DNA of 64,000 nucleotides. Source: an uncultured Pseudomonadota bacterium (lineage in GTDB: Bacteria; Babelota; Babeliae; Babelales; RVW-14). The position numbers were made by a program, and so were the translations under genes. Of this stretch, positions 15,314-58,212 are shown one piece after another. The stretch's first letter is position 1. Every line of letters starts with the position of its first letter. The notes beneath the pieces are model-generated. The model saw only the letters and a program-made list of their open reading frames with translations, had not been told where the DNA came from and did not search any database. The stretch spans positions 31,045 through 95,044 of the forward strand of contig CAYHBO010000001.1 of assembly GCA_964354855.1 (NCBI GenBank), written 5' to 3'.

Positions 15314-16426
15314 ATGAAGCGTACATCGATATTATTACTCTTAGTGCCCAATAATTTTTGGCGCATTTTTACCGTATCATTTGATCTTATAAGACGTCAT
15401 CCTCGCGAAAGCGGGGATCCAGGGCTTACTTCTTTTTTAATTCTTTTTTTTGAATTACTTTTTATTAAAAAGACCTGGATCCACGCTTTCGCGAGGATGA
15501 CGTGCGGATTACTTATCTGCTTCTTCAATCAACAGATTTTTTGCAAAGAAAAAGAAACAGTACAAGAAATAATCGACACCCACAAAAAAACACTTTTTCA
15601 AACATATCCAACCAAAACAGAGCAACAGCAATTTACCAATGACCTTGTTGAGCAATCGTTCTCAGGCAAACAAGCAGATCTCTTTTTAAAAATGCATAGC
15701 GATAAAACTCAACACGAATCACTCCAATTTTTGTACACAACCATGTGGTCAGTGCTTGCTGAACATGGCTGGTGTACGTGGGATAGCTCCTGCCTCAAAG
15801 CACTCAAACAAGAACATGATTCTGGAAAAACGATTGTATACATCGGCGGGGGCTGTGATATTTACGAGCTCATCACCAATGGCATCTACAACATCATCGT
15901 CATAGACCCCATTTTACCAACCCAAAAAAATTATTACCCTGATGATTATCTTTATTTAATCCAAGGTTCAGGCCCTGATCATGGCCTGAATGATCAAATC
16001 ACCGGGCTTGCCGGCAACAAAAGGCTTACACTTAAGCGTAGCGGGTTTGAAAGTATGCCTGACTACATAAGCTTTAGCTTACCATCCGGGCAACAACGCT
16101 GTACTCAAGTATCAAAAACAACCTGGACCGTTCTTGATAAAAAACAACATCCGATTGGCACCATTATCTTTGATCGTAGATTTACCACACAAAAAGATTT
16201 TGAATTAGCACCAGACAGAGTGCTATTGTTTTCATGGAACGAGCTATTTTTTGTGATCAATGGTGAATGGGGGATCAAAACAAATCAATTTCAAGATGAC
16301 ATCACGCTTTTTATCAAGCAGCTCAGAAAGCCCATTACCAAAGAAATGATCGATAACATGCATCACGCCCATGAACTTAATCGTTCGAAGTTCAAATTTA
16401 TTGGCCTAGGAAGTCATGTTGTTTAA
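15314..16426 (+). CDS. paralog 1 of a triplicated secreted family (GG-x-D-[IV]-Y / IDP-x-LP-[TS]-Q domain)
   Basis: The roughly 230-aa C-terminal domain aligns with the next two ORFs (TIVYIGGGCDIYELITNGIYNIIVIDPILPTQKNYY, FDRRFTTQKDF, IKQLRKP). A full PE1 element lies in frame in the N-terminus. Confidence 0.6.
   Translation: MKRTSILLLLVPNNFWRIFTVSFDLIRRHPRESGDPGLTSFLILFFELLFIKKTWIHAFARMTCGLLICFFNQQIFCKEKETVQEIIDTHKKTLFQTYPTKTEQQQFTNDLVEQSFSGKQADLFLKMHSDKTQHESLQFLYTTMWSVLAEHGWCTWDSSCLKALKQEHDSGKTIVYIGGGCDIYELITNGIYNIIVIDPILPTQKNYYPDDYLYLIQGSGPDHGLNDQITGLAGNKRLTLKRSGFESMPDYISFSLPSGQQRCTQVSKTTWTVLDKKQHPIGTIIFDRRFTTQKDFELAPDRVLLFSWNELFFVINGEWGIKTNQFQDDITLFIKQLRKPITKEMIDNMHHAHELNRSKFKFIGLGSHVV
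15394..15503 (+). repeat. PE1 palindromic element, full copy (inside CDS)
   Basis: ACGTCATCCTCGCGAAAGCGGGGATCCAG ... CTGGATCCACGCTTTCGCGAGGATGACGT with an AT-rich spacer. Confidence 0.9.
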
Positions 16427-16457
16427 AGAAAAATTAATTTTATTCAGGAATACTTAC

Positions 16458-17840
16458 ATGCTTAAAAAGTTAAATTACTTATTGCAGACATTGCAACGCC
16501 TTACGTCATCCCAGCCTTCGCTGGGATCCAGGTCTACTCTACTACTGCTTCTTCTGACTACTTTTCTTACCTCTCATGCCACCCCCGTTATAAAAAACGG
16601 ACCCAATGTATTTGAAAAATGGGTAACGAAACAAACGATCCTAACTGATCGATCTCCAACCGAAATGGCCGCACTCCTCAACGATCACTACTTAACTCAA
16701 TTTCGTGCTTACTACGAAAGTAATTTTGCACTACTAAAACCATTAACTGGATTTTTAAATAGGTTAACCGCAGAGCAAATTAACCAGCATGGATACCGAT
16801 TTGAATCAATATTACCAGCGCCTATGACATCAACTTTAACCTCTTTATACGATCAACTTGAACACAATCAACAAGCATTTGTTAATACCTTAAAGCACCT
16901 CCAATTTTCATCTCCTATGATTAATCACATTGAAGAATCGTGTAAATATGACTTCACCGTTGAAAAATATAAAATGCTGTCACGGTTGCTTTTCAAACAA
17001 GAAAACCGATTTAAAGAAGACGAGTTTCTTCTTGGGATGGCCAATAGAATTTTTGAATACTGTTTTCAAGAAGTCTCTTTTCCCCACTACCAAGCATTAC
17101 TTAATAATCAAAGTGATTATCCCCTCGTACGATTTTTACACAGCACTCTATGGTACAACTTAGTTGGCAGCAACTGGCTCAACTGGCATAAAAATAGCTT
17201 AGAATTAATAGAACAGTCAGCCGATGCAGGCAATAGAATTATGTACCCAGCAGGCGGAACCGATGTATACATGCTCCTACAAAACGGCGTATACAATATC
17301 ACCATTGTTGATCCATTTTTACCAACACAAAAAGATTACTACACAGAAGGGTGGGATTGGTTAGTAAGAAGCAATACTCAAGATGGTGGCATCAATGATG
17401 AAATCAACTTTAATCCACCATACCGGCACCTTACATTAAAGCGAACCGCTTTTACCGAAGGCGATTCATTTTATGCTAAACTTTCTACCGGCGATGCCGT
17501 AATGATCAAAAAAAGCACCACCACCTGGACTGTTCTTGATGGTAGCACCAATGCAACGCTTGGTTCCATCATTATTGATCGACGTTTCACAAACCAACAC
17601 GATTTCACCGTTAAGAATAATCCCATTGTTATGTCATACGATGAACTTGTATGTGCCATATCTCCAGAGATGCTGAGTGGCTGGGGCATCGACCCTGACC
17701 TAATACATGATGATCAAGTCATCATCGTTAAGCAATTACGTAAACCGGTTCCCAAAAAAATACTGCAAAACTTGCGCATTGCAATTGCAATGAATGCCGT
17801 AAATATGAAGTTTATTAGTTTTGCATCAGATCCAACATAA
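16458..17840 (+). CDS. paralog 2 of the triplicated secreted family
   Basis: RIMYPAGGTDVYMLLQNGVYNITIVDPFLPTQKDYY, IDRRFTNQHDF, VKQLRKP. A solo PE1 arm lies in the leader (RLTSSQPSLGSRS). The start could be 16416. Confidence 0.6.
   Translation: MLKKLNYLLQTLQRLTSSQPSLGSRSTLLLLLLTTFLTSHATPVIKNGPNVFEKWVTKQTILTDRSPTEMAALLNDHYLTQFRAYYESNFALLKPLTGFLNRLTAEQINQHGYRFESILPAPMTSTLTSLYDQLEHNQQAFVNTLKHLQFSSPMINHIEESCKYDFTVEKYKMLSRLLFKQENRFKEDEFLLGMANRIFEYCFQEVSFPHYQALLNNQSDYPLVRFLHSTLWYNLVGSNWLNWHKNSLELIEQSADAGNRIMYPAGGTDVYMLLQNGVYNITIVDPFLPTQKDYYTEGWDWLVRSNTQDGGINDEINFNPPYRHLTLKRTAFTEGDSFYAKLSTGDAVMIKKSTTTWTVLDGSTNATLGSIIIDRRFTNQHDFTVKNNPIVMSYDELVCAISPEMLSGWGIDPDLIHDDQVIIVKQLRKPVPKKILQNLRIAIAMNAVNMKFISFASDPT
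16503..16532 (+). repeat. PE1 solo arm (variant hairpin CCCAGCcttcGCTGGG), inside CDS
   Basis: ACGTCATCCCAGCCTTCGCTGGGATCCAGG. Confidence 0.75.
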
Positions 17841-17850
17841 GGAGCGCGCC

Positions 17851-57233: not shown

Positions 57234-58064
57234 TTATAACGAATATTTATTCTGATTGGGGCGCTTATTATGGCGTCCTTTATCTTTTGGTAGAATTTTT
57301 TCAGAGTCAGGCGCGTACGCGTCGACTATTTTAAAGCATTCAACATAATCACCTTTTTCTGTCATAACCCCGCGATAGCGATTAAGGGCTCTTACTCCTT
57401 CGTCATACTGAATATCTTTAATTTGAGACTTATGGAAGCGTAATGCTTCTATTTTTTTGTCTATTACGTTAGTAATATTTTCAACATAAGACGGCTGTTG
57501 AATAGGTGTCCAGACTTCATAGCAGAGTATTTTTTTTATATCTTTTGCTGATTGTGTAACGGCTTCCCTTACGATCTGAAATGTAACTACGTGATCTTGA
57601 TGATTATCTTCGCTATGGGGCGCGTAAATAATATCGGGATGTTTATCTTTAATAAGCTGCGCGCAGATATCGATTGATGATTGATTGCAGGTTACGTTTC
57701 CATCGGGTATATGTAAAAAAGTTATATCAGTTACGCCTAAAAAAGTTGTAGCCACGCGTGCTTCATGTTCACGAATAGTTCCTAAATTCTTTGGGTGCTT
57801 CTTGCTTGGATTTCCCACTTCTCCTGAGGTCATGTAGACGATTGCGACATAATTTCCTGCTTGTAGGTGGTTAATGATGCTGCCGCCACAGCCGATAATA
57901 TCGTCGTCAGGGTGTGGAGAGAAGACGAGAATGTTGAGGGGGCGGTTGTTAAAGAAGGAGTGGTAGGAAAGCCGCTCAAATGGTTCGAGACGCTGCACTT
58001 CGTTTCGCTCCTCACCACGAACGGCACTCATGAGGAGTATTAATAAAAAACATCCGAACGTCAT
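57234..58064 (-). CDS. PIG-L/LmbE-family N-acetylglucosaminyl deacetylase
   Basis: VFSPHPDDDIIGCGGSI, H..DHQDH. The start is placed at the ATG lying inside the PE1 terminal repeat (ARMTFGCFLLILL...). The ORF stays open to a GTG at 58256 but only through repeat sequence. Confidence 0.7.
   Translation of the reverse strand: MTFGCFLLILLMSAVRGEERNEVQRLEPFERLSYHSFFNNRPLNILVFSPHPDDDIIGCGGSIINHLQAGNYVAIVYMTSGEVGNPSKKHPKNLGTIREHEARVATTFLGVTDITFLHIPDGNVTCNQSSIDICAQLIKDKHPDIIYAPHSEDNHQDHVVTFQIVREAVTQSAKDIKKILCYEVWTPIQQPSYVENITNVIDKKIEALRFHKSQIKDIQYDEGVRALNRYRGVMTEKGDYVECFKIVDAYAPDSEKILPKDKGRHNKRPNQNKYSL
57982..58037 (-). repeat. PE2-like element in the N-terminal region of the PIG-L gene
   Basis: The reverse complement reads CTCCTCATGAGTGCCGTTCGTGGTGAGGAGCGAAACGAAGTGCAGCGTCTCGAACC. 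Confidence 0.6.
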
Positions 58065-58164
58065 CCTCGCGAATGCGGGGATCCAGGCTTTACTTCTGTT
58101 TTTCTTTTTTTTTTGAATAATTTTTATAAGAAGACTTGGATCCCCGCATTCGCGAGGATGACGT
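58058..58164 (+). repeat. PE1 element, full copy (5' end of the PIG-L gene)
   Basis: ACGTCATCCTCGCGAATGCGGGGATCCAGG ... TGGATCCCCGCATTCGCGAGGATGACGT. Confidence 0.9.
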
Positions 58165-58183
58165 ACATAAGGGCTCAAATGGT

Positions 58184-58212
58184 CTGGATCCCTGCCTTCG
58201 CGAGGATGACGT
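58184..58212 (+). repeat. PE1 extra right arm (tandem duplication including flank ACATAAG)
   Basis: CTGGATCCCTGCCTTCGCGAGGATGACGT followed by acataag, as after 58164. Confidence 0.8.

Follow-up and report, generated by a model that had tools for sequence, protein, structure and literature searches.

The analysis of a 64,000-nucleotide stretch of DNA (contig CAYHBO010000001.1 of assembly GCA_964354855.1, positions 31,045 to 95,044 of the forward strand; hereafter the window) identified a set of palindromic repeats, here named PE1, which very probably form a local family of CGTC-1 repetitive extragenic palindromes (REPs) arranged in head-to-head (HH) dimers with the tags outside. On this reading the dimers are the CGTC counterpart of REPINs (REP doublets forming hairpins), non-autonomous, and do not donate start codons to the adjoining genes. 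The host is a Dependentiae (TM6) bacterium, and the named homologues of its NusA (63–65% identity) and of the protein family P1–P3 treated below were from Candidatus Babeliales, Dependentiae or TM6. The window also encodes ankyrin-repeat proteins and type II secretion genes. Elements of this class, CGTC-1 REP dimers, have been described before, and what is new here is the host phylum, the evidence on presence and absence between relatives, and clean cases of copies read in frame within genes.

The CGTC REPs have an unpaired CGTC or TGTC (or CCTC) head, a stem of 8–9 bp starting with A-T and T-A pairs, a loop of 4–5 nt and an unpaired CCA tail, the CGTC-1 family being the one with an 8-bp stem and a 4-nt loop (Di Nocera, De Gregorio and Rocco 2013, BMC Genomics 14:522; PMC3733652). 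They are found mostly as HH dimers with conserved spacers of 20–100 bp, they favour sites between unidirectional or convergent open reading frames (ORFs), and some are intragenic; dRS3 of Neisseria and RPE-6 of Rickettsia conorii are members of CGTC-1, and RPE-4 belongs to CGTC-4 (PMC3733652). Every one of the listed features (head, stem, loop, tail, HH dimers, spacer and location) is present in PE1, and the two are also alike in their occasional in-frame intragenic copies and in tandem reiteration together with flanking DNA. PE1 differs in its host phylum, in the stem variant TCGC/GCGG with a fixed G-T pair, and in its spacer, which is AT-rich and pyrimidine-rich. Dependentiae are not among the five phyla for which CGTC repeats were reported (PMC3733652), and no paper on CGTC repeats in Dependentiae was found in the literature. 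The CGTC REP superfamily is in this way extended to Dependentiae, which are obligate intracellular bacteria with small genomes.

The 29-nt arm ACGTCATCCTCGCGAAAGCGGGGATCCAG had 12 matches in the window when up to three mismatches were allowed, and none in 100 shuffled sequences. A covariance model built from the arms found 14 canonical arms in the window, and no further one, together with a collapsed copy (matched at 30135–30164); the same model also picked up two related REPs, at 30176–30209 and 61258–61321. Altogether PE1 is present as six full palindromes of 97–133 nt, to which an extra arm, a solo arm and a collapsed copy are added. The preliminary description of the window had counted eight or nine REPIN-like copies, and all the states it distinguished, including the solo arm at 16503, the collapsed palindrome at 30134 and the duplicated arm at 58184, were found again. 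Its translations of the arms, RHPRE.GDPG and WIPAFARMT, are correct as well.

The arm is laid out as A-CGTC-ATCCTCGC-GAAA-GCGGGGAT-CCA-G, where ATCCTCGC and GCGGGGAT form an 8-bp stem with a G-T pair at position 5, closed by the 4-nt loop. Of the 14 arms, 13 have the head CGTC and one AGTC; 12 have the tail CCAG, while CCAA and ACAT occur once each; and the loops are GAAA, GAAT, GAAC, GAAG, GCAT and CTTC. The spacers of the six HH dimers are about 39–75 nt long, pyrimidine-rich and AT-rich, with a consensus (GGYCTTACTTCTTT...AAGAAGRYC) common to five of the six full elements. The hairpin nature of the arm, as first described, thus holds, and the conservation claimed for the spacer holds in part. 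When folded, the full elements form a hairpin of about 30 bp (-60 to -74 kcal/mol, z-scores from -11 to -14) on either strand. No direct repeats that would mark a target-site duplication were found around any of the six full copies.

Three full elements lie in spacers between genes. The element at 25502–25634 (133 nt, with a 75-nt spacer) separates two minus-strand Metallophos genes, 25716–27365 and 23991–25448, which are tandem paralogues; that at 37353–37456 (104 nt) occupies the 203-nt gap from gspE to the next minus-strand gene; and that at 55585–55688 (104 nt) the 234-nt gap from a PALP (cysK-like) gene to dapF. A fourth, at 58058–58164 (107 nt), is noncoding; it has the ppsA stop (58253) on one side and the true start of a PIG-L gene on the other. 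Beside it stands the extra right arm (58184–58212, minus strand), a tandem duplicate that includes the 7-nt flank ACATAAG and has a period of 48 nt. The collapsed copy (30134–30163, ACGTC-ATCCCCGC-ATTC-GCAAGGAT-GACGT) carries heads at both ends and is flanked by prs and gspD, which converge on it; a dimer that lost the stretch between its similar 8-nt half-stems, GCGGGGAT and GCGAGGAT, could leave such a sequence. None of the five intergenic sites (25502, 30134, 37353, 55585 and 58058) is divergent: each is unidirectional or convergent, though the number is too small for significance.

The remaining copies are in the tandem array of the paralogues P1–P3. The element at 15394–15503 (110 nt, an HH dimer of two arms with a 52-nt spacer) is inside ORF P1, and that at 17914–18010 (97 nt, with a degenerate left head AAGTC and the loop GCAT in both arms) is in P3. 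The solo arm at 16503–16533 (plus strand, ACGTC-ATCCCAGC-CTTC-GCTGGGAT-CCAGG, covariance score 38 bits) is in P2, and its stem changes ATCCCAGC/GCTGGGAT are compensatory. The left flanks of three elements (15356–15393, 17851–17913 and 37315–37352) show a weak T-rich similarity, TTTTRRCNCATTTTTA...CATTATTT, with a score of 35 against a background maximum of 25, the orientation of which relative to the spacer is inconsistent. The spacer orientation does not flip across the putative replication origin, which with only six copies is uninformative. An independent assembly of the same strain (L127, a Logan ERR3856787 contig equal to window positions 55661–58086) breaks at both ends inside PE1 arms, as would be expected of a multi-copy repeat about as long as a k-mer. 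Exact-protein look-ups of the window genes returned the same strain only.

The arm design is found far beyond this host. When one genome per species was scanned with the pattern GTCATCCNNGCNNNNGCNNGGATCCAG, in which 19 bases are fixed and stem positions 5–6 and the loop are free, at least 120 genome stretches matched, representing many phyla, and by our own estimate a handful of chance matches would be expected for 19 specified bases. The matches listed, to which also the following counts refer, belong to Alpha-, Beta-, Gamma- and Deltaproteobacteria, Planctomycetes, Patescibacteria, Omnitrophota, Gemmatimonas and further groups. Of the 141 arms, 109 have C ahead of GTC and 25 have T, and an inverted partner lies 4–148 nt downstream (HH) in 75 arms as against 16 with the partner upstream (tail-to-tail, TT). 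The loops are mainly GAAG, GAAA and GCAG. Stem position 6, the only freely varying position that the search pattern left open, is Watson-Crick paired in 136 arms (CG 78, GC 48, TA 5, AT 5), compared with a mean of 63 and a maximum of 81 in shuffles. At stem position 5 a G-T pair occurs 11 times and C-A never. In an alignment of 60 distinct arms 98.1% of the cells pair, compared with 22–52% when the partner column is slid, and positions 1–2 are invariant (AU, UA). The arm pattern was also seen in 74 IMG/VR viral contig stretches (L131–L204), often between genes for terminase, portal, capsid and tail tube; these sites may possibly be prophages or gene-transfer-agent-like clusters of Proteobacteria.

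The parallel with Rickettsia palindromic elements (RPEs) that had been drawn from the window alone is apt, as the CGTC-1 family includes R. conorii RPE-6 (PMC3733652), a kinship that follows from this assignment to the class. RPEs and PE1 are both palindromes of about 100 nt in obligate intracellular hosts, some of them in frame in protein genes and apparently tolerated there. PE1 differs in being mostly intergenic and in having its coding copies concentrated in N-terminal presequences.

The dimer, rather than the single arm, appears to be the copied unit. The loop variant is identical in both arms of five of the six dimers (GAAA at 15394 and 55585, GAAT at 37353 and 58058, GCAT at 17914), which random pairing of arms reached in about 0.4% of trials (p about 0.004), and from this concordance the dimer appears to behave as a replicating or concertedly evolving unit, like REPINs. 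The whole-arm distance did not differ significantly within and between dimers (p 0.12). In a dimer of the relative L130 (GCA_964459565.1) both arms carry the stem change GTCTTCC, by which the complementarity from arm to arm is kept and the arm's own hairpin is broken. The REPIN-like architecture, two inverted REP hairpins with a spacer between them, was recognized correctly at the outset.

The comparison of orthologous loci, which the preliminary description had put forward as a check, was made with a relative represented by Logan SRR16642447 contig 16744 (L128 and L205), the NusA of which is 82% identical and the GspE of which falls in the same 90% cluster. The two pieces supply about 30 kb of DNA syntenic to 25–61 kb of the window, and no PE1 arms are present in it. 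Where the window has a 203-nt spacer from gspE to the next gene, L128 has 23 nt and no element; the 234-nt spacer from the cysK-like gene to dapF corresponds to 6 nt without an element in L205; and the 200 nt between the convergent genes gspD and prs correspond to a 4-nt overlap of the genes in L128. The copies are therefore absent at the orthologous sites. L130 has a PE1-like dimer of its own at another locus, downstream of the UDG gene (L130:3510–3694), and none in its P1–P3 genes. Since the arms are lacking in the syntenic DNA of L128 and L205 and the dimer of L130 is elsewhere, the PE1 copies are, as judged from these sequences, lineage-specific, which argues that PE1 is active now or was so recently.

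By analogy with the REP/RAYT (REP-associated tyrosine transposase) and IS200/IS605 systems, we suggest that PE1 would spread as a selfish, non-autonomous repeat by way of a single-stranded intermediate folded as a hairpin. Pointers to such an intermediate are the covariation of the stem, its tolerance of G-T where C-A never occurs, and the missing target duplications. It had been proposed that PE1 mirrors REPs mobilized by RAYTs, which would mean that the dimers are copied by a Y1 transposase of the IS200/IS605 type, domesticated and encoded elsewhere in the genome, that recognizes the arm hairpins. REPINs are reportedly inverted pairs of REP hairpins associated with a RAYT, and PE1 resembles them in the larger hairpin formed of two REPs, in the dimer as the copied unit with its concordant loops, in the lack of target-site duplications and in the lineage-specific abundance; the same covariation likewise points to a single-stranded and strand-specific substrate. 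However, REPINs carry a GTAG tag at the REP end, while the PE1 heads are CGTC and no GTAG adjoins the stems. A scan of 40 ORFs of the window found no transposase domain, whether Y1_Tnp or another. ORFs bracketed by arms were also sought in 194 genome and viral stretches, and of the 15 found the 10 scanned were ordinary metabolic or phage structural genes, with no transposase among them. The survey of CGTC REPs found no associated transposase (PMC3733652), the later literature examined names no mobilizing enzyme for them, and no RAYT is known for the CGTC class. The proposal of RAYT mobilization was thus not borne out, and we consider it quite unlikely.

The size of the repeats (97–133 nt), their perfectly inverted ends and their AT-rich core would also suit a DDE-type miniature inverted-repeat transposable element, the 29-nt arms then being the terminal inverted repeats of an insertion sequence that has decayed. 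Such an origin is very improbable here: target-site duplications are absent from all copies, the arms fold as hairpins in their own right and covary across phyla, solo arms exist as independent units, and the window contains no related insertion sequence. A more speculative alternative is that the CGTC hairpin may be copied, as a dimer, by a conserved but unrecognized enzyme, of the host or of a mobile element, with single-stranded hairpins as its substrate, and that in Dependentiae it has perhaps been exapted repeatedly, as in-frame presequence modules of secreted proteins and at junctions with foreign genes. What leads to this idea is a nearly invariant 27-nt hairpin occurring both in reduced, host-dependent genomes (Dependentiae, Patescibacteria) and in many free-living phyla, with no linked transposase; we regard it as a long shot. 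Small genomes with CGTC REPs would be a good hunting ground for the mobilizing enzyme.

The copies within genes are concentrated in the array P1–P3 (15314–19365), which consists of three tandem paralogues without a Pfam match, each with a PE1 copy at or near its 5' end. P1 (15314–16426, plus strand) starts at ATG 15314 with the Shine-Dalgarno sequence GGAGTAGGA, and both its upstream region and its start align with the orthologue at L130:5296, which has a GTG start; in the frame of P1 the element at 15394 is translated as 37 codons, RHPRESGDPG...WIHAFARMT. P2 has its likely start at ATG 16458, and the solo arm lies in frame in the n-region of the signal peptide (...QRLTSSQPSLGSR...). As there is no start codon between the arm and the hydrophobic core, the arm is translated, and the signal peptide of the orthologue, MNYFKISTFVFAAFTFVTC, is without it. 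The hydrophobic core (h-region) of the P2 signal peptide resembles the element spacer only weakly, and an origin of it from the spacer was rejected. P3 (17851–19365, plus strand) belongs to a Dependentiae-specific secreted family. Its ATG 17851 is preceded by AAGGAG at a spacing of 6 nt and aligns with ATG 7780 of L130, and the peptide ahead of the element at 17914 is conserved between the two (MIFFLTIFLALLFFMLLLF vs MIILKKLFQKLLFSALVSF). The element is in frame in the N-terminal extension from ATG 17851 to the family-type signal peptide. Other members of the family start directly at the signal peptide, so this lineage has gained the N-terminal extension containing the element. The P3 orthologue of L130 has a different palindrome, ATCCTTCGGCAGGCTCAGGACGAGC...GCTCGTCCTGAGCTTGTCGAAGGAT, at the position of the element (L130:7830–7902), in frame from the conserved ATG, the ends of which (CGTATCCTTCG...CGAAGGATACG) resemble those of PE1. 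Because the ATGs at 15314 and 17851 are upstream of the elements and aligned with the starts of the orthologues, the elements are read in frame, and the early observation of in-frame copies was right for P1, for P2 (the solo arm) and for P3.

The same starts speak against the claim of the preliminary description that PE1 donates start codons, and with them hydrophobic leaders, to the downstream genes. The claim arose from the terminal GGATGACGT, which puts an in-frame ATG ahead of P1, P3 and the PIG-L ORF; in P3, moreover, the stretch from the element to the signal peptide is free of canonical start codons, and the start of the database protein P0001 (478 aa) is placed at ATG 17929, within the left-arm loop of that same element. 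The genes at 15314 and 17851 have, however, their own upstream ATGs with good Shine-Dalgarno sequences, and the ATGs of the elements (15497, 18004 and 58064) have no spaced one: GAGG abuts them with zero spacing, and they are buried at the base of the hairpin of about 30 bp. Also the third gene, for a PIG-L family deacetylase (57234–57998, minus strand), likely starts at GTG 57998, with GAGGAG 9 nt upstream, or at ATG 58031, both downstream of the elements. Its best 120 homologues are about 220 aa long, consist of the domain only and start at the PIG-L domain with no leader (for example MTKILVFAPHPDDD in L123 and MNILAVGAHPDD in L124). Donation of starts by PE1 is accordingly hardly credible for any of the three genes. 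The 340-aa ORF 57234–58256 and the database protein P0129 are read-through artefacts, and the hydrophobic PIG-L 'leader' ARMTFGCFLLILL is translated spacer; the starts of P0001 and P0129 are probably annotation artefacts caused by the repeats. The annotation of two database proteins, of 340 and 478 aa, which start upstream of or inside repeats, is thereby corrected. A search of metagenomes with the PIG-L protein found only three distant loci and no orthologous junction.

In addition to PE1 the window has REPs of a second subtype. One, at 30176–30209 (minus strand, TGTC-ATCCTGAA-CTTAT-TTCAGGAT-CCAGG, with an 8-bp stem and a 5-nt loop; 22 bits, E 0.001), adjoins the collapsed PE1 copy and has the head, the start of the stem and the tail as in PE1. 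Another, at 61258–61321 (plus strand), has a TGTC head, the stem ATCCTGAA/TTCAGGAT, a CCAGG tail and a loop of 35 nt. The conserved ORF 60606–61850 (414 aa) reads through it in frame, in its middle part, as ...TCHPELACPPKPWRRLDSGSR..., a segment that is inserted by comparison with eight homologues. A 95-nt palindrome of the subtype, TTGTCATCCTGAA...TTCAGGATGACAA, lies at 23884–23978, just downstream of the UDG gene. There are hence two clean cases of a tolerated in-frame REP, one in a signal peptide (P2) and one, of the second subtype, in the middle of a conserved enzyme-like protein.

Several points weigh against PE1 being a recently mobile family that is read through in genes. Mobility rests on presence and absence between species about 82% identical in NusA; the intergenic flanks are unalignable, and gain in this host and loss in the relative are therefore formally inseparable. 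The insertion in P3 may be old instead of recent, because L130 holds a different palindrome with similar ends at the same site. The insertion points can be placed only approximately, and the lack of target duplications holds at that resolution. P1 may be a gene in decay with a frame that is open by chance, as 9 of the 36 frames of the elements are open. Transcription, RNase III processing and translation through PE1 are all inferred.

If PE1 is co-transcribed with the operons, its RNA would form a perfect duplex of about 30 bp, which could be a cut site for RNase III or a buffer against mRNA decay, and which would block initiation at an internal ATG. The in-frame copies would be tolerated because they lie in N-terminal presequences (P2 and P3, possibly P1) that are removed or structurally irrelevant; the frame RHPRE...ARMT of the elements is usually open.

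The stability of this hairpin and its tolerance of G-U pairs in the stem would also suit an element that is mainly a functional RNA, either a small RNA precursor like WsnRNA46 (Wolbachia small RNA 46) or an intercistronic stabilizer, an attenuator or an RNase III site, and the intergenic copies are all in co-transcribed or convergent spacers. The element at 55585 matches the Rfam model of WsnRNA46 (RF02625) from end to end on both strands, with 52.0 and 46.8 bits (E 1e-10 and 3e-9), and the two share the arrangement of two inverted arms in a long hairpin and the arm ends GUCAUCC...GGGAUCCAG. The scores are, however, below the gathering threshold of 65.3, the inner stem sequence differs from that of PE1, and the match is explained by the shared REP architecture; WsnRNA46 looks like the same kind of element and is not evidence of function. 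Neither Rfam at gathering thresholds nor a tRNA scan gave matches in the window, and no terminator-like hairpin with a T-run was called at the elements in 54000–59000, the only stretch scanned for these. Relative to transcription the spacer is oriented both ways (sense at 15394, 37353 and 55585, antisense at 25502 and 58058), and the relative manages without elements at the same operon junctions. A functional RNA as the main role of PE1 is thus possible but rather unlikely.

The PE1 cluster at 58058–58212 is at the ppsA-side edge of a segment, 56583–58252, which comprises ORF 56704–57231 (with two 144-nt internal repeats and CxxC motifs) and the PIG-L gene. The segment is absent from L205, in which dapF and ppsA abut, and the PIG-L protein has its best homologues in Firmicutes, Archaea and Patescibacteria, with at most 54% identity. 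By these comparisons the segment looks like an acquired two-gene island with a PE1 cluster at one edge.

This would agree with PE1 arms being sites of recombination or integration that mark the boundaries of entry of foreign DNA, like dRS3 and the NIMEs (Neisseria intergenic mosaic elements), which have the same arm design. In Neisseria, dRS3 is used for phage integration, and large clusters of it flank mosaic cassettes, features in which it differs from PE1 as seen in the window. dRS3 is a CGTC-1 member as stated above, and two orthologous sites, the 5' region of P3 and the region downstream of UDG, hold different palindromes in this host and in L130. Against such a role, there is a single island boundary with arms and no arm at the dapF-side boundary, and neither integrase nor phage genes are nearby. 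Integration sites of this kind are thus an improbable explanation of PE1.

Two further features of the window were noted. The spacer from nusA to the Peptidase_C11 gene (48565–49238) contains at least 12 DnaA-box-like sites (TTATCCACA/TTATCAACA), with arrays phased by 11 bp at 48847–48899 and an inverted array at 48998–49040, and the GC skew changes sign here; it is likely the replication origin. Finally, a class I tRNA-synthetase-like gene (50971–51756, 261 aa) adjoins an unassigned 367-aa ORF (51863–52966), and at the corresponding place L205 has a single 483-aa gene with an anticodon-binding domain.

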